Part shown: positions 9,021 through 52,725 of the stretch, piece by piece
Layout of the letters: every line of letters starts with the position of its first letter
Position numbering within the stretch: position 1 is the stretch's first letter
Assembly (NCBI GenBank): GCA_030650275.1
Contig: JAUSEK010000001.1
Span: 101-64,100, forward strand
Direction: 5' to 3'
Origin: Candidatus Omnitrophota bacterium
GTDB lineage: Bacteria > Omnitrophota > Gorgyraeia > Zapsychrales > Fredricksoniimonadaceae
Length of the DNA: 64,000 nt
Program-made: the position numbers and the translations under genes
Notes under the pieces: model-generated
Database searches by the model: none
What the model was told of the DNA's origin: nothing
The model's input: only the letters and a program-made list of their open reading frames with translations

Positions 9021-9572
9021 TTAATCGCGCCACTTGATGGAACAGCCCATGGAGGGGAATTGTTGGACGGCAACAGGACGGCCGGCAGACATGTTGTTCA
9101 TCGCCTCCTTCAATTCTTCGCGGGTCACGGCGTCTTCGTCCTTCCAATTGTCGTCCACGCGGCCGTGATAGGCAAGTTTTCTATCTTTGTTGAACAGATA
9201 AATGTCGGGCGTGCATTGGGCGCGGAAGGCATCGGCGACTTTTTGAGTTTCGTCAGCCAGATACGGAAAATCGATCCCCCATTCCTTGATCTTGAGCGCC
9301 ATCTTGTCCGGAGCGTCGTCGGGAAAGTTAGGATTGATGTTGGGATTGATGGCCACGGTATTGACCTTCATCCCCTTGCCGTATTTGGCCAGGCGCAATA
9401 ACCGCGGCCACACCGCCAAAGCATACGGGCAATGATTGCAGGTGAAAGCCACCAAAAGCCCGCGCTCACCGTACAAATCGCTTCCCTTATAGGATCTTCC
9501 GGACGGGTCTTTGAGCTGGAAATCCGGCATCAGAGTACCTAACGGTATTTTGATGGATTCCAATAAAGCCAT
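9021..9572 (-). CDS. thioredoxin-fold thiol-disulfide oxidoreductase (redoxin family)
   Basis: CNHC (CxxC) motif in a TlpA/AhpC-like context; 183 aa. Confidence 0.65.
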   Translation of the reverse strand: MALLESIKIPLGTLMPDFQLKDPSGRSYKGSDLYGERGLLVAFTCNHCPYALAVWPRLLRLAKYGKGMKVNTVAINPNINPNFPDDAPDKMALKIKEWGIDFPYLADETQKVADAFRAQCTPDIYLFNKDRKLAYHGRVDDNWKDEDAVTREELKEAMNNMSAGRPVAVQQFPSMGCSIKWRD

Positions 9573-45296: not shown

Positions 45297-46180
45297 TTAT
45301 CCCCTGGGATGAAACTGTTTGTGCACGCTCTTGAGCCGCTCTTTGTCCACGTGCGTGTAAATTTGCGTCGTGGCGATGTCCGCGTGGCCGAGCATTTCCT
45401 GCACAGAGCGCAGATCCGCGCCATGTTCCAGCAAATGGGTGGCGAAGGTATGCCTCAACGTGTGCGGCTTGATGTTCTTTTTGATGCCCGCCAGCCGCGC
45501 GTATTGCTTGATGATCTTCCAGGCCATGACCCGCGACATCTTTTTGCCCTGCTGGCTTAAGAAAAGCGCGTCGCTTTCCGTGGTTTTCAATGATCTGGGA
45601 CGGATGTGTCCGCAATAATAGGCAATGGCTTCCCGCGCTTTCCTGCCGACGGGAATGATGCGCTCCTTGCTGCCTTTGCCGATGGCGCGCACAAAGCCGG
45701 CTTCCAAATTAACGCTGGCGACCTTCAGGTCCACCATTTCCGAAACGCGCATGCCGGAGGCGTAAAAAAGTTCCAGCATCGCGTAATCGCGTTTATGATT
45801 TTTTCCCTTGGTCTGCGCCGCCCGCAGGATCGCTTCCATCTCTTTTTGCGTCAATACCTCGGGGATCCGCGCCCATTGTTTGGGCGTATCCACCAGGGAA
45901 GTCGGATCTTCCTTAGCCAGGCCGTCGCGCACCAGAAAACGGTGGAACATTTTGACGGCGGCCAGGTTCCTGCAAATACTGGACGTGGAGAGGCCCGACT
46001 TCTTGAGTGTTTGCAAAAAACCGGTGATATGCTCCGAACGGACAGTGTCCGCATTTTTGACGCCCTGGCCGGCCAATAATTTTACATATTTTTCCAGGTC
46101 CAGCCGGTAGGCCGCAAGCGTGTTCTTTGCCAGACCGCGCTCAACGGAAATATAGTTGATGAATTCACCGATGAATTCCT

Positions 46181-46184
<4 letters not shown>
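45297..46184 (-). CDS. xerD: site-specific tyrosine recombinase XerC/XerD
   Basis: R...HxLRHTFATHLLEHGADLRSVQEMLGH...Y catalytic tetrad region; 295 aa. Confidence 0.85.
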
Positions 46185-48792
<2,608 letters not shown>

Positions 48793-48807
48793 ATCATATA
48801 TCTGATT

Positions 48808-48836
48808 ATTTTAACATCCCGACGGTATTCCGTCAA
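48808..48836 (-). promoter_or_regulatory. candidate tRNA-Pro promoter TTGACG-17-TAAAAT
   Basis: Hexamers read on the minus strand about 15 nt upstream of the mature tRNA 5' end. Confidence 0.4.
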
Positions 48837-49079
48837 TCCTTTGTGGGGTGTTGCGCATCTCGTGCGCAAGCCTAACCTGCTCATTGCAAAAGATATGGGC
48901 GGTATCCGGACGCTTCCTTTGCGGTAAACGCCCATACGCCCTCCCGTCTAAATGTCCGTCATTTTAAATGTTTTTGGGGGAAATATTTTGTTCAACCGAC
49001 CGGGGAAATCGGCTACTACACCTATATACTAATATAAAACCAGAACCTGTCAATTGTTCTTGTGACGCCATTTGTTCTT

Positions 49080-50291
49080 TCAACTTTCACTAACTCTAAA
49101 AGATCGTATTGAATTTATCTTTTCGTTTATTTTAAATGTATGCTCATCAAGATCGTTAACAAATTCCTCAATGCTATCTAATTCTTCATCTGTAAAGCTG
49201 CGGTGTTCATATCGCAACATTCCATTGATGAGTCCCAAGAGATCACTAAACCCATGTCTTTGATACGGCTCTAGCAACCTATCTTCGGCTTTTCTTTGCC
49301 AAAACATGTATGGGGGATTCTTTTTCTTGCTCAAGCTTATTTTTGCAGTACTTAACGCGTTGGTGAGGCGCCCGACCCTGAAAAGCACATAGAAAATAAT
49401 GTAACTGACACAATAATATTCCTTGTCTCTGCTAAGTCGGGTGAGCAATGCTTGAACGAATAATTCTCCGTCTTTCTCATCCCTGAAAGATTTAAATAAC
49501 TTAACTAATGCATCGCCGTTCTCAGACTGCACAGTTGCCCCTTGGGGATCATTTAATATTTCTTGCCGCTCTCCAGATTTACTACTCGTCCAACTATCCT
49601 GATAGATGCTTTTAATTTGTCTCCCTTGGCATAATGCGTATATACTACCCAACTCTCCTGATTGACGCCCGTATTTTTGATAACGACTAATTTCATCCTT
49701 AAGAGTAGCTGCCACTTTTCTTTCTATTTGATTTTGTAACTTATAGATTGCTTCCTCTGTTAATTTAATAGGTATAAATCTTTTCTTTTTATCTGATTTA
49801 AATTCAACGTTCTTTAGAATGCGTTTCTGTCCATATTGATCTACGAAAATTATGTCTGCTTTGAAATCCTTCCCTTCCTTGCAAAATGGTGGGCAAATCC
49901 AGAAATCTGCGTGTAGGTCGGTAGTCGCGCGTGGAGGAATAGGGTAGTCTCCGTGATATTCACTGTGCACATCTTTAAGCGATACATGTCCTTGATTTCT
50001 AGGCTTCTTGATGTAAACGTTTAAGATGCTAATCGGTTGGTCTGTTGGATTTGTTACGTACCAATAACCCACTATCTGCATGGCGGGTTTTTGATCACCG
50101 GTGCTCCCCATGTGCCACCAGTTAAATCTGTAATGAGGAAGGATGATTGGACGGTTTAGCCAATGCCTTATCCATGGGAATATGGCCCCTAATTTCTCCA
50201 ATATACTGTTCAGCGATGCCAAAGATTGACTGAGTATTCGAGCCCAAAACTTTACATCGCTATCTGTGTTTAAGTTATTATTTTGAGTCAT
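49080..50291 (-). CDS. orphan hypothetical protein (403 aa) in low-GC island
   Basis: Clean 403-codon ORF with GC of roughly 42% by eye versus about 58% in the flanks. No motif I can place; N-terminal half beta-rich, C-terminal half helical. Confidence 0.6.
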   Translation of the reverse strand: MTQNNNLNTDSDVKFWARILSQSLASLNSILEKLGAIFPWIRHWLNRPIILPHYRFNWWHMGSTGDQKPAMQIVGYWYVTNPTDQPISILNVYIKKPRNQGHVSLKDVHSEYHGDYPIPPRATTDLHADFWICPPFCKEGKDFKADIIFVDQYGQKRILKNVEFKSDKKKRFIPIKLTEEAIYKLQNQIERKVAATLKDEISRYQKYGRQSGELGSIYALCQGRQIKSIYQDSWTSSKSGERQEILNDPQGATVQSENGDALVKLFKSFRDEKDGELFVQALLTRLSRDKEYYCVSYIIFYVLFRVGRLTNALSTAKISLSKKKNPPYMFWQRKAEDRLLEPYQRHGFSDLLGLINGMLRYEHRSFTDEELDSIEEFVNDLDEHTFKINEKINSIRSFRVSES

Positions 50292-50554
50292 TCCGCCTTT
50301 AGTTCTTTGAACCGTTTCCAGGTATCTTATTTATTCGCTAATGATTCTGATGAAATGTACCCATTATGCCAGAAACAAAAACCCTCCGCAATTCATTAAA
50401 ATCGCATGGGTTTATATACAAATAGCCTCAAATCTAATTCAAATTCTGTCCTCCCAAGTACCGGTTCTGCCTCCATTGCCTAACATTGAATTGTTCAAAA
50501 ATAAATCCTCCCCGTCCTTACCCTATTCTCTCCTCTCCCATGTCGCAAGGGGTA

Positions 50555-50611
50555 GTTCAAGACCCCACTCACTCATAAAAAACTTATAGTAGAGTGTGTG
50601 GGGTCTTGAAC
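50555..50611. repeat. 20-bp inverted repeat (GTTCAAGACCCCACTCACTC / GAGTGTGTGGGGTCTTGAAC) with 17-bp AT-rich spacer
   Basis: Arms are reverse complements with a single mismatch; read directly. Confidence 0.55.
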
Positions 50612-50659
50612 GGTTTTGAGCGCTTTTGCCCAAAAACCCCGTGCAAATGGGAGAAAAAA

Positions 50660-50734
50660 GGGCACAAATTAGGCACAGATTTGTGCCTGATCTGTGCCCA
50701 AACTTGCGCCCTTGTTTGTGCCTAATCTGTGTCT
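50660..50734. repeat. array of GGCACA / TGTGCC heptamers forming nested palindromes
   Basis: At least six copies of the (A/G)GGCACA core in both orientations within 75 bp: GGGCACA, AGGCACA, TGTGCCT, TGTGCCC, then TGTGCCT-AATC-TGTGTCT. Confidence 0.55.
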
Positions 50735-51081
50735 ATTTTAGACTATAGCTCAAAGAAATAGTACCTACGATTATCTTTTTACATAACGAATTAGTAGGCC
50801 AACCCTTCTCCAGTCCGTATTTGAAGGTTAAGCGCCACACTTGTTGTTAAACAAGCAGAAACAAGCACTACGAGTACCTTTATACGCAACCTGGCCTTTA
50901 CACGGCTCACCACCTCTATGCCACAGTTCAGTTGAGGATTTTGCATGTTGCCCTCTCCTTTCCCGGACTGCGGAAGGGTTGGCGCTTGGCGATGTGCCAT
51001 TTATAGAATTTTAATGTTGTGAAAAGGGCTTTTGTCGAATTTCGAACCCGATGTCGGACATACGCAACGAAAATGCAATTC

Positions 51082-51492
51082 TTAGGGCTTTATCATCTGT
51101 TTTGTTTTTTGGATAACCTGGCTGACAAAAGCAATATAATCATCCGCTTCTTTCTTGGTGATCGTGCCGCCGGCATCGTAAAGGTCTTTATTACGCTTCA
51201 TCCGCATGGCATTGCCAACCGTAAAGACATCTGGATCGCCTAGAATTTCACTCAACTTAAGTAATATCTTAACATGATGCCCGGTCACGCTCCTGACCTT
51301 AACCCCGCCCTTCTTTGCCAAAATAGCCATGCCGATCTTGATCAATGCCTGATAACAATAGGTAAATTGGACTTCCCTAAAATGGTCTTTCTGGGCAATA
51401 TCCAGATCACGCATGGCGCTTTCAACATAACGGTCAATTTGGGCCGCCGTAAATTTAAACTTCTGAAAGAACTCCTGTTCAAATGAGATCAT
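51082..51492 (-). CDS. HEPN-domain protein (toxin partner of nucleotidyltransferase)
   Basis: 136 aa helical protein with R-x4-HH (RSVTGHH). Overlaps the upstream MNT gene by 4 bp (ATGA). Confidence 0.65.
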   Translation of the reverse strand: MISFEQEFFQKFKFTAAQIDRYVESAMRDLDIAQKDHFREVQFTYCYQALIKIGMAILAKKGGVKVRSVTGHHVKILLKLSEILGDPDVFTVGNAMRMKRNKDLYDAGGTITKKEADDYIAFVSQVIQKTKQMIKP

Positions 51493-52031
51493 ATGATCCT
51501 CACGGTTTTCTTGGATTCAATAGACTTTAAAAACGGATCCTTCCCTTTTTTATCATTGTACTCCTGAAGCGACATACTGACGGCATTAATGTCTCTTTGG
51601 GTAGACTTTTGCACCTGTGCAACCGCCTTTTGAAGTTCTACGGTACTATGATCTCCAACAACCAAAAAATCAATGTCGCTATGGGAATCCATCTTCTCCT
51701 GGGCATAGGAACCAAAAATAACGGCTTTTTTAATACCAGAAATAGTGCCAAGTGAAGTCTTTAATACCTGCTCCAGACCAATGGTCTTTAAAACGATGTT
51801 TTTATACTCCTTTAACAACGGAAAGCTCTTATTTAACGAATAATACCGCTGTTTGCCCTGCCAGCGGCTTTTTAAGAGGCCCTCTTTTTCAAGGACGATC
51901 AGTTTACGGGTCAAATTACCGCTCTCTGTATGGAGGATCCGGGCTAGGTCATTGACATAAACCTCAAACCCTTGTTGCAGCATGAAATAATTGAGGATTT
52001 GTTGAGAAACTTTAGAGCGCAGGCTGATCAT
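51489..52031 (-). CDS. minimal nucleotidyltransferase (MNT) with N-terminal winged-HTH
   Basis: GSYAQEKMDSHSDIDFLVV (GS...DxD) pol-beta NTase motif preceded by a wHTH-like segment; 180 aa. Confidence 0.75.
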   Translation of the reverse strand: MISLRSKVSQQILNYFMLQQGFEVYVNDLARILHTESGNLTRKLIVLEKEGLLKSRWQGKQRYYSLNKSFPLLKEYKNIVLKTIGLEQVLKTSLGTISGIKKAVIFGSYAQEKMDSHSDIDFLVVGDHSTVELQKAVAQVQKSTQRDINAVSMSLQEYNDKKGKDPFLKSIESKKTVRII

Positions 52032-52054
52032 AGGAATTGCCTCACTGTGTTGAT

Positions 52055-52082
52055 TTACAGTGATTACTGTAAATTATTACAG
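52055..52082 (-). promoter_or_regulatory. overlapping palindromes TTTACAGT-GATT-ACTGTAAA and CTGTAA-ATTA-TTACAG upstream of the MNT-HEPN operon (candidate operator)
   Basis: Perfect inverted repeats 24-51 bp upstream of the MNT start codon. Confidence 0.4.
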
Positions 52083-52139
52083 CAATGGAGTCAATATTTT
52101 TATCAATTTTTGGTATCCCAAAGACATCTAACTTATTTA

Positions 52140-52194
52140 TGCACAAAACAACAAATAAATATGCACAGATCGACATAATCTTTTGCACAAATCG
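52140..52194. repeat. three direct repeats TGCACA(A/G)A(A/T)C spaced 22-23 bp
   Basis: TGCACAAAAC (52140), TGCACAGATC (52162) and TGCACAAATC (52185). Core resembles the GGCACA(A/G)AT heptamers at 50660-50680. Confidence 0.45.
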
Positions 52195-52290
52195 ATATGG
52201 TTTTTGGTGTCCAAAAAGTGTCCAAGTTTAATGCAGATTGGTTAAAACTGAATAAAAATGATTAAAAAGGTCTCGCTTTAGGACAAGTTT

Positions 52291-52725
52291 TCATACCTCT
52301 TTGATCCCGAGGCCGATCTCGGCTTCGGCGACAAGTTTGTCCCCCACCCTGACCTCGGCGCGGATGATGCCGGTCTTGGGTAAAAGTTTCACGGAAGAGA
52401 CCTCAATGCGCAACTGGTCACCGGGGACCACGGGATGGTGAAAACGCGCATCGATCTTGGCCAGATGATAAACCAGGTCCTTGCCCTGCAAATCTTTACT
52501 GTAATAAAAATAGACGCAACCCGCCTGGGTCATGGCTTCAATGATCAGCACGCCGGGCATGATCTTTTCACCCGGGAAATGCCCCTGAAAAAATTGTTCA
52601 TTGATCGAAACGTTCTTCACAGCGGTCAACTTCTGATCGGGGACGCACTCAACGACCTTGTCGATCATCAGGAACGGATAACGATGAGGGATTATTTTCT
52701 GGATCTCTAAAATATCTAAAATCAT
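52291..52725 (-). CDS. fabZ: 3-hydroxyacyl-ACP dehydratase FabZ
   Basis: PHRYPFLMIDKV and GHFPG hot-dog fold motifs; 144 aa; AAGGAGAG RBS. Confidence 0.9.
   Translation of the reverse strand: MILDILEIQKIIPHRYPFLMIDKVVECVPDQKLTAVKNVSINEQFFQGHFPGEKIMPGVLIIEAMTQAGCVYFYYSKDLQGKDLVYHLAKIDARFHHPVVPGDQLRIEVSSVKLLPKTGIIRAEVRVGDKLVAEAEIGLGIKEV

Follow-up and report, generated by a model that had tools for sequence, protein, structure and literature searches.

A folded junction and a repeat array in one module

In the 64,000-nucleotide stretch of a Candidatus Omnitrophota bacterium genome analysed here (the window; contig JAUSEK010000001.1), a 790-bp gap at positions 50292–51081 houses an inverted 20-mer repeat and, beginning about 50 bases past it, an array of GGCACA-type repeats. 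These features are two parts of one non-coding module of ~206 nt (50534–50739), in which a three-way hairpin junction, made of an outer helix (P1) that encloses the 20-mer repeat (P2) and a shorter hairpin (P3), is followed by an A-tract and the array (Table 1). The gap sits within a 3.4-kb island (48793–52250) of 41–46% G+C, compared with ~55% for the genome, which lies on the 5′ side of tRNA-Pro and is bounded by tRNA-Pro and LigA on one side and by FabZ on the other. The genes of the island all lie on the minus strand, the gene strand for this copy of the module; a wHTH-MNT and HEPN-like gene pair is upstream, and an orphan gene downstream. An earlier note on this DNA, made from its letters alone, had called the region non-coding, and this holds: the gap contains no credible open reading frame (ORF). 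The region also lies in horizontally acquired DNA.

Table 1. Location of the module, its parts, its homologues and the neighbouring features (positions in the window)
Feature	Position	Strand	Remarks
P1, 5′ arm (outer helix)	50534–50553	plus	TCTCCCATGTCGCAAGGGGT; pairs with 50636–50654 in the DNA fold
P2, 20-bp inverted repeat with 17-nt loop	50555–50611	plus	arms 50555–50574 (GTTCAAGACCCCACTCACTC) and 50592–50611 (GAGTGTGTGGGGTCTTGAAC); loop motif CTTATRGTA conserved
P3, short hairpin	50614–50635	plus	TTTTGAGCG-cttt-TGCCCAAAA
P1, 3′ arm	50636–50654	plus	ACCCCGTGCAAATGGGAGA
A-tract	50654–50659	plus	read on the minus (gene) strand, a T-run that follows the hairpin
Array core, GGGCACA-aatt-AGGCACA-gatt-TGTGCCT-gatc-TGTGCCC	50660–50699		18-bp hairpin, 4-nt loop
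Extra reverse units	50704–50734		TTGCGCC (~50704–10), TGTGCC (50717–22), TGTGTC (50728–33); as direct repeats they precede the hairpin when the minus strand is read
Three direct TGCACARAWC repeats	52140–52193	plus	at 52140, 52162 and 52184, 22-bp phase; upstream of the wHTH-MNT gene
Spacer between module and 403-aa gene	50292–50533		G-poor in the window, G-less in other copies
403-aa gene	49080–50291	minus	orphan; downstream of the module
HEPN-like gene	51082–51492	minus	upstream of the module; profile match
wHTH-MNT gene	51489–52031	minus	upstream of the module; profile match
tRNA-Pro	48716–48792	minus	beyond the 403-aa gene; sole Rfam match passing in the 64-kb window
Homologous copies			L021 (Omnitrophota metagenome-assembled genome), L034, L035, L050/51, L056, L073, L074, L078, L080–82, L083/84

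The inverted repeat is as the earlier note had described it, with arms that are complementary at 19 of 20 positions and a 17-nt A/T-rich spacer. The suggestion that it might be a stand-alone recombinase site does not stand, since the repeat forms helix P2 of a conserved junction, and the positions that vary in this junction covary. In an alignment of nine copies of the module, P1 comprises 20 pairs (6 of them compensatory, 92% paired), P2 comprises 19 pairs (9 compensatory, 98% paired) and P3 comprises 9 pairs, 4 of which are compensatory. Over all helices, 94% of the 431 pair cells are paired, compared with 83% after shuffling, and compensatory double changes are found at 19 of the 48 pairs, compared with 3–5 when the partners are slid by 1–3 columns. 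None of 500 shuffles matches the observed pairing and covariation, and double changes (47 cells) far outnumber single-sided ones (5 cells). The basal halves of all three helices keep their sequence, and the other halves vary yet stay complementary: the outer half of P1 (CTCTCCCAT/ATGGGAGAG) and the basal 10 bp of P2 (GTTCMAGACC/GGTCTKGAAC) are conserved, while the apical half of P2 covaries. Such a pattern points to intrastrand pairing rather than to a dimeric protein on two half-sites. What argues most strongly against chance is the recurrence of the same architecture, with compensatory changes, in unrelated contigs. In the window, the 216-nt stretch over the two features folds as DNA with a z of about −10, alike on either strand.

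The pairing suggests DNA rather than RNA. Among the 431 cells there are 399 Watson-Crick pairs, 6 G·T pairs, 6 A·C pairs (G·U on the other strand) and 20 other mismatches; wobble pairs are no commoner than random mismatches on either strand, and because the G·U enrichment typical of RNA is absent, the junction is favoured as a DNA structure. In a search of the 64-kb window with Rfam 15, the module matches no family at the gathering threshold, and at E ≤ 5 the region 48700–52400 yields only chance hairpin matches to microRNA models (19–27 bits, against gathering thresholds of 70–98). A hammerhead or other ribozyme was rejected, there being no Rfam signal for one. Also rejected was a sigma-70 promoter just before P1 that would serve a plus-strand small RNA (some copies have a weak A/T-rich −10-like patch there, without a −35). 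Between the module and the downstream gene, the gene strand encodes no conserved leader peptide or small ORF, and this idea was dropped too. On the gene strand, moreover, the junction lies behind a terminator-shaped hairpin, which is formed by the array.

All heptamers listed in the earlier note are present (GGGCACA at 50660–66, AGGCACA at 50671–77, TGTGCCT at 50682–88, TGTGCCC at 50693–99, TGTGCCT at 50717–23 and TGTGTCT at 50728–34), and the degenerate TTGCGCC at ~50704–10 is a further one that it had passed over. The window thus has two forward (50660, 50671) and five reverse heptamers at 11–13-nt spacing. The nested palindrome that they form is real, with 18-nt arms and a 4-nt loop, but near-perfect (89% complementary) rather than perfect. 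As a whole the array extends over 50660–50734, and across copies it consists of 2 forward and 2–5 reverse hexamers in an 11-nt phase. The layout of two forward and two reverse units recurs in 9 of the 10 other copies, the remaining one (L073) having a single outer unit around the inner palindrome, and every copy has 1–3 additional direct repeats of its outer unit ahead of the hairpin.

On the gene strand, each array forms a 17–20-bp hairpin with a 4-nt loop, and in 9 of 11 copies a T-run comes immediately after it; the corresponding A-tract is 5–9 nt long in the same proportion of copies. The minus strand of the window reads GGGCACAGATCAGGCACA-aatc-TGTGCCTAATTTGTGCCC-TTTTTT and has a predicted folding energy of −41.7 kcal/mol over a 115-nt segment. 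A G+C-containing hairpin with a T-run, past the upstream genes, is what defines an intrinsic (Rho-independent) terminator at the sequence level, and the array hairpin has this shape; it would act as a terminator for those genes. A simple terminator scanner did not flag the hairpin of the window, most likely because of its internal mismatch. Termination by itself leaves unexplained the two 11-nt-phased hexamers in each arm, the extra direct units and the concerted behaviour of the hexamers.

This last property is seen when arrays are compared. Within an array the hexamers are uniform, and between arrays they switch as a set, from GGCACA (7 copies) to TGAACA/RGAACA (2 copies), TTACAA (2 copies) or CATTGGAAAT (1 copy). 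The oriented repeats that drew the attention of the earlier note are real and under selection, and their concerted, switchable nature resembles that of cognate protein-binding sites such as iterons and operators; such sites they are predicted to be. For each array, no further cluster of its hexamer was found within its own locus. Apparent ORF families shared across the GGCACA-type loci were discarded, as they proved to be spurious frames over the module itself.

A search of the window for the repeat motif, of the kind that the earlier note had suggested, was fruitful. In 64 kb there are 8 exact matches to the 9-mer GCACARATY (2.9 expected), a count that none of 100 shuffles reaches. The array accounts for four of them, two lie 22 bp apart upstream of the wHTH-MNT gene, which is the only other cluster, and two are elsewhere. 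A looser 10-mer with one mismatch is not enriched across the window (17 against 22 expected), with 5 of the 17 falling within 75 bp. The two 9-mers upstream of the regulator gene, GCACAGATC at 52163 and GCACAAATC at 52185, are exact array 9-mers in the regulator's own upstream region and belong to the three direct TGCACARAWC repeats. Because of these repeats, the wHTH-MNT protein is a reasonable candidate binder of the window array, and the repeats themselves look like an operator or iteron set for this protein. Other GGCACA-type loci are without an MNT gene.

Copies of the module and the genes around them

Twelve distinct modules are known from 10 independent loci, which belong to one Omnitrophota metagenome-assembled genome and several metagenome contigs. 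When one genome per species was scanned with the pattern GGCACA-N5-GGCACA-N4-TGTGCC-N5-TGTGCC, the single match was the Candidatus Omnitrophota genome L021, and a relaxed array pattern gave 47 matches in metagenomes. Five of these 47 (four distinct ones, as L050 and L051 are one copy) share with L021 the array plus ~130 nt to its left, including the counterpart of the window's 20-mer. Further copies were sought via the gene that follows the module in one locus and with a covariance model derived from nine copies; the model finds exactly one module in the window, with its junction part at 50533–50669. L034 and L056 each carry a tandem pair of modules. A GTTACRAC linker follows P1 in 10 of 11 copies and is deleted in the copy of the window. 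A search of the literature found no description of such an element.

A second copy comes from the window's own sequencing sample, on contig L074, the end of which is identical to 30 nt of the window (50551–50580). Two short-read contigs from this sample, L001 and L074, both end in the P2 loop (window 50580). As they end with the identical 30 nt, at least two loci in that community share the P2 helix, and the shared arm probably explains why both contigs break within the loop.

The sequence that precedes P1 is another variable part of these loci. Where the window has its spacer, other copies have G-less low-complexity sequence or tandem repeats (as read on the module strand), and the 100 nt before P1 contain 9 G residues in the window versus 0–5 elsewhere. 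In L078 the module is separated from a small ORF by eleven tandem 17-nt units (TGGGTAGGTTGTGTTGA on the plus strand of that locus; positions 9381–9567), which are G-less on the module strand. In place of these eleven units, other copies have degenerate C/A-rich repeats of 5–9 nt.

Some GGCACA hairpins occur without a junction. In L038 (185–220) and L065 (174–210), a GGCACA-GGCACA-TGTGCC hairpin with the same A-tract has the 3′ end of a tyrosine integrase gene on one side and tRNA-Ser(tga) on the other; it may represent the array in an ancestral or minimal state. The marine contig L059 has nine GGCACA/TGTGCC hexamers within 100 nt (~100–220), among them several GGCACA-AATTT-TGTGCC palindromes. 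In viral contigs, a scan with the inverted-repeat pattern returned no matches. A scan of the same contigs with GGCACARATTAGGCACA returned 19 matches in ~8 unrelated contexts, none of them with an array, which were judged to be chance, and two junction patterns found only L070, a chance match to a terminator. Seven viral contigs (L003, L006, L009, L011, L013, L014 and L019) contain an ORF ending in ...YYGTN*, the last codons of which overlap GGCACAAATTAGGCACA; this is probably a chance pattern match.

At every one of the 10 independent loci the module has the same orientation relative to its co-oriented flanking genes. Read along the gene strand, the upstream genes come first, then the array and the junction; a C-less stretch of 40–700 nt, of low complexity or tandemly repeated, separates the junction from the downstream gene. 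Downstream genes are of four types. In the first, a gene for a very acidic 155-aa protein is followed by genes for SpoVG, ArdA, methylases, UmuDC and type I or III restriction–modification systems; in the second, a Fic-wHTH gene comes first, with tRNA-Ser and a gene for a large serine recombinase after it (L021); in the third, a Xis/AlpA-like gene is accompanied by a tyrosine integrase gene (L056); and in the fourth there is a HEPN or AbiV-like gene. The upstream genes encode HEPN-MNT in the window and, elsewhere, HEPN-RiboL-PSP, RES, a fragment of a UvrD-type helicase, or Abi-alpha-like and SIR2-like proteins. ArdA, methylases, SpoVG, HEPN, RES and UvrD are all found at the L050/51 locus.

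The acidic 155-aa gene follows the module in six loci, and its family also occurs in module-free relatives together with TraU/TraH/TraF, ArdC, a FitA-like RHH protein, a coupling protein (T4CP) and the TrwC relaxase. Because of such mobile-element genes, including those beside the acidic family, the hosts of the module are taken to be conjugative or integrative elements and their remnants. The family (P0001–P0046, for example L080 4147–4611) always lies among ArdA, ArdC, SpoVG and methylase genes, and one group within it directly precedes the RHH, coupling-protein and TrwC genes. It has no match in Pfam, PHROG, NCBIfam or PADLOC and is absent from PLSDB; the protein may act against restriction as a DNA mimic. 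A conserved palindrome of ~140 bp (L073 9880–10010, L078 9880–10010, L076 5573–5709, L071 8607–8730 and L080 4020–4150) immediately precedes the acidic gene. Each of its arms carries TTGACA and an AAAGGA motif like a ribosome site, its center is a G+C-rich hairpin, and a small divergent ORF lies on its other side.

Comparison of homologous loci reveals turnover of the genes next to the module. L078 and L083 have the same chromosomal flank and backbone, but they differ in defence cargo (upstream genes for CBASS in L078 versus ThsB-TIR with DUF4238 in L083, with ArdA, UmuDC and type I restriction–modification genes following), in array type and in the repeat stretch, while their junctions are 77% identical. 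L034 and L056 are homologous up to GAGAGTTACRAC of the second module and diverge from the array onward. The array moves together with the cargo on its side, and the junction with the backbone. Modules also shift as units between contexts (L056b, L078).

Possible functions of the module

Our preferred explanation, held tentatively, is that the module is a cis-acting signal on the transferred single strand of its element, fused to a terminator and a protein-binding array. We infer that the junction acts as folded single-stranded DNA rather than RNA, because its pairing is strictly Watson-Crick and no promoter feeds it. Such elements would most obviously be single-stranded during conjugative transfer. 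If, by analogy, the template strand of the flanking genes is the transferred strand, the module would enter the recipient after the genes on its junction side. There the junction could behave as a structure-specific signal of the ssi/Frpo/sso class that recruits a primase or RNA polymerase, and priming or transcription back across the early genes (anti-restriction, toxin–antitoxin, integrase) would render them double-stranded or transcribed soon after entry. The phased hexamers would be sites for an oligomeric, element-specific DNA-binding protein, for which wHTH-MNT is the candidate in the window.

The leading regions of conjugative plasmids provide the closest parallel to this proposal, as they consist of co-oriented anti-defence, methylase and toxin–antitoxin genes punctuated by structured single-stranded DNA promoters (PMC11541004). 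The module lies upstream of operons for ArdA, the acidic 155-aa protein, UmuDC and methylases, in a fixed orientation. Its likeness to the Frpo/ssi elements (Samuel et al., 2024, PMC11541004) extends to structured non-coding DNA between co-oriented anti-defence, methylase and toxin–antitoxin genes, to a constant orientation with respect to those genes, to the possibility of several copies per island and to selection for pairing at the DNA level. The differences are nevertheless considerable. Frpo is one long imperfect hairpin with −35 and −10 boxes, whereas the module is a three-way junction without such boxes, is fused to a hexamer array and a terminator, and has no sequence similarity to known elements. 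Single-stranded DNA promoters and priming signals of the Frpo and ssi kind were reportedly described by Masai and Arai in 1997.

Several observations weigh against reading the module as a single-strand signal. The transferred strand is assigned only by analogy, because no oriT or relaxase was located on the module-bearing contigs; no relaxase or type IV secretion system gene was seen on the module-bearing stretches (each ≤20 kb), and relatives that do carry a relaxase (L076/77) or type IV secretion genes (L075) lack the module, the covariance model having found no divergent one in L071 or L075–77. A strict single-stranded DNA promoter is unsupported, since no −35 or −10 boxes are visible in the hairpins; a scan for sigma-70-like promoters with at least 9 of 12 matches found none on either strand of 50100–51100, and the best hexamers discerned by eye in P1 and P2 reach 3–5 of 6 positions at the wrong spacing. 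The separate ~140-bp palindrome is already upstream of the acidic gene and is itself a candidate Frpo-like single-strand promoter or, alternatively, a divergent promoter. The tandem modules of L034 and L056 and the lack of P2 in L021, owing to which P2 must be dispensable in at least one copy, are likewise unfavourable. With regard to the array, the inner units of L083 (GGCTCA/TGAGAC) have changed on both arms, and this compensatory change inside a hexamer implies that at least the inner units are constrained by pairing and not by sequence. Finally, no DNA-binding protein or other family is common to the surroundings of the GGCACA-type copies.

A second way of placing the module within conjugation, which we regard as unlikely, is as the oriT of a conjugative or mobilisable element, where a relaxase would recognise the junction and nick the GTTACRAC linker while an RHH-type accessory protein coats the array. 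The MOBF oriTs of R388 and F have a layout that resembles this one. The module has a hairpin, then in most copies a conserved and presumably single-stranded stretch of ~8 nt, an A-tract and phased repeats similar to those bound by RHH proteins. Its pairing is at the DNA level, and relatives of its host elements encode a FitA-like RHH protein, a coupling protein and the TrwC relaxase right after the acidic gene. The end of L034/L056 homology just past GAGAGTTACRAC, and the retention of the junction but not of the array and cargo between L078 and L083, are as expected of joining at a nick, and islands such as those of the window and L021, which are small and have no transfer genes, might be mobilised in this way. 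Set against this are the absence of the module from the relaxase-bearing relatives, the complete loss of the linker in the window copy and the failure to recognise any known nic consensus; tandem modules would also be odd for an oriT. In addition, a nick within the module would cause ArdA, UmuDC and the acidic protein genes to enter last, which is the reverse of a leading-region position (PMC11541004).

It also seems improbable that the module is a site of site-specific recombination or accretion, in which the junction would be a folded-DNA substrate like attC/attI or part of an attP, the hexamers would be arm-type integrase or excisionase sites, and the whole would mark the point of cargo exchange at the end of an element. 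Tandem sites phased at 10–11 bp are typical of arm-type and Xis or Cox sites, and the tandem hexamers fit such spacing. Cargo on the array side does differ between homologous loci (CBASS versus Thoeris-like in L078 and L083; L034 versus L056), modules lie by Xis-Int (L056), by a large serine recombinase gene and tRNA-Ser (L021) and in a tRNA-Pro island (the window), and the junction-less hairpin of L038 and L065 adjoins an integrase gene and tRNA-Ser. The likeness to attC sites and CALIN clusters lies in folded-DNA hairpins of ~20 bp with a mismatch, in the keeping of structure more than sequence, in location between co-oriented toxin–antitoxin or defence genes and in cargo turnover alongside; the 7 + 5 + 7 bp box layout of P2 is also reminiscent of attC.

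The defining attC features are nevertheless absent. The R″ (RYYYAAC) and R′ (GTTRRRY) boxes are not found, nor are the invariant inner AAC...GTT triplets, as P2 is GTTCMAG...CTKGAAC; judged by eye, GTT/AAC stands at its outer end, with G:C in place of C:G as the inner pair. The module adds an outer helix, a third hairpin and a hexamer array, and there is one module (or a tandem pair) per 9–20 kb rather than one per cassette, hence no cassette array. It is intact in all integrated contexts and never split into the hybrid attL and attR sites of a lambda-type attP. None of the annotated loci showed an integron integrase, the copies have no recombinase as a regular neighbour, and direct repeats do not flank the window island. 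A cognate recombinase or Rep protein, or a link to XerD, as the earlier note had envisaged, was not found either; the XerD-like gene of the window (45297–46184) lies in the housekeeping flank.

A purely transcriptional role, which strikes us as doubtful for the module as a whole, would make it a strong and possibly bidirectional terminator or insulator, with the array as operator (for wHTH-MNT in the window) and the junction as a passenger repeat of the REP/BIME or MITE type. This would accommodate the gene-strand hairpin with its T-run, seen in 9 of 11 copies, the A-tract on the opposite side, the invariable position between co-oriented genes and the relocation of modules as units. The array unit is repeated three times at 22-bp phase before the HTH-MNT gene, and in L021 the array lies ~160 bp upstream of the Fic-wHTH gene. 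Rho is loaded at rut sites, which are C-rich and G-poor, and the G-less, C-rich flank of the module could similarly load Rho on antisense transcripts. The hairpin, loop and T-run are those of Rho-independent terminators, and the direct repeats that overlap and precede its 5′ arm recall the protein-controlled HutP/TRAP type, but no RNA-binding regulator is in evidence, the stem is unusually long and internally repetitive, and a 125-nt junction with 19 covarying pairs is superfluous for a terminator and goes unexplained by termination, as do the 1–3 extra direct units. REP or MITE repeats would not usually keep one orientation at 10 of 10 loci or be confined to mobile elements, the ends of the module have no terminal inverted repeats or target duplications, and no relationship is detectable between the wHTH domain of the MNT protein in the window and that of the Fic protein in L021.

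Conceivably, though we give it little credence, the module is where a DNA-level system not described before arranges the defence and anti-defence cargo that conjugative or integrative elements of Omnitrophota carry at their ends. In that event the junction would be a folded single-strand substrate fixed to the backbone, and each incoming gene set would bring its own hexamer hairpin, to be joined at the GTTAC linker. As part of the same long shot, the system would be functionally comparable to attI × attC, with other sites and a still-unknown enzyme.

Less credible still is a structured non-coding RNA, consisting on the plus strand of the C/A-rich 5′ region, the junction and a terminator, or on the gene strand of a 3′-untranslated or leader element. 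The very strong covariation would suit it, as would the hairpin and T-run that end the plus-strand module in several copies and the tandem paralogous copies that are common among small RNAs. At loci of the 155-aa type, the small plus-strand ORF and the divergent promoter-like palindrome upstream make transcription into the module conceivable. The composition of the helices argues otherwise, with the two kinds of wobble pair (6 and 6 of the 32 non-Watson-Crick cells) at the level of random mismatches on both strands and single-sided changes rare, as do the lack of an Rfam match and of an adjacent promoter in the window and the position of the junction after the terminator on the gene strand. 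An iteron-type vegetative origin, with an initiator bound to the phased hexamers and the A/T tracts and strand-asymmetric repeats serving to unwind and prime, is very improbable: the short-repeat origins of P4, SaPI and SF3-helicase systems look similar, and head-to-head hexamers between A- and T-tracts, concerted within each array and element-specific, next to a strand-asymmetric tandem repeat (11 × 17 nt in L078) would fit, but no gene for a Rep, primase or helicase initiator is near any copy, tandem modules carry different hexamers in one element, the 3.4-kb window island has no replication gene, and the compensatory change inside a hexamer indicates pairing rather than sequence reading.

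In terms of known classes, the module appears, from its sequence, to have the defining features of an intrinsic terminator and to lack those examined for Rfam families, attC, Frpo, MOBF oriT, iteron origins and lambda-type attP. The array has properties like those of RHH/HTH operator and centromere repeats, and the nearest class in the proposed working is ssi/Frpo/sso; membership can be assigned in none of them. In shape alone, the inverted terminal repeat of adeno-associated virus, which is T-shaped and has tetramer repeats that bind Rep, is also comparable, with an outer stem around two small hairpins, then a short single-stranded stretch, and short tandem protein-binding repeats. It belongs to another domain of life, however, no HUH Rep is present here, and the repeats of the module are outside the stem.

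Omnitrophota are uncultured and widespread, and their mobile elements are almost unstudied. A DNA structure supported by covariation, at the boundary between backbones and swappable defence genes (CBASS, Thoeris-like, HEPN/MNT, Fic and RES), provides a concrete marker of such islands; with it one can ask how they are transferred, established or rearranged, and the covariance model makes the question testable on public data. Were the module indeed a single-strand signal, the Frpo/ssi concept would reach beyond Proteobacteria and Firmicutes, in a completely different fold; were it a recombination site, it would represent a new cassette-exchange system.

The island of the window

The wHTH-MNT protein matches Pfam NTP_transf_2 and, weakly, MarR, as well as the NCBIfam models for ArsR-type HTH and MntA. 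Together with its HEPN partner it corresponds to PDC-M05A and PDC-M05B of PADLOC, the candidate defence system PDC-M05. The transcript of this pair would head toward the array hairpin, which is ~340 nt beyond the HEPN stop codon. On the other side of the module, the 403-aa protein has no match in Pfam, PHROGs, PADLOC or NCBIfam. By our own reading of the sequence, tRNA-Pro has a canonical promoter (TTGACG-17-TAAAAT).

No integrase or replication gene is present in the window island, and no direct repeats of at least 14 nt flank it. Since it has neither an integrase nor flanking direct repeats, it is probably the remnant of a decayed mobile element. A chromosomal replication origin was ruled out by the absence of a GC-skew turn and by the low-GC island setting. 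In blastn searches against phage and plasmid collections, no similar DNA was found, and the remaining intergenic DNA of the island (50747–51081, 52032–52300 and 48793–49080) has only matches of 13–18 nt to the other loci.

Two further kinds of repeat occur within the island. Between the HEPN stop codon and the array is a second, long-range inverted repeat (50798–50817/50964–50983), with 20-nt arms that are 90% complementary and 146 nt apart; the 201-nt stretch that contains it has a minus-strand fold with z = −2.7 and no homologue in the other loci. Two copies of GTGTCCAA, 12 bp apart, lie at the right-hand edge of the island (52207–52226). The 15-mer TTTTTGGTGTCCAAA is found again in L080–82 (L080 3044–3058), beside a 5′ fragment of tRNA-Ser, and similar GTGTC-type repeats adjoin the 3′ ends of integrase genes in the viral contigs L009 and L019. 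These repeats may be integrase arm-type sites that mark an old attachment site.

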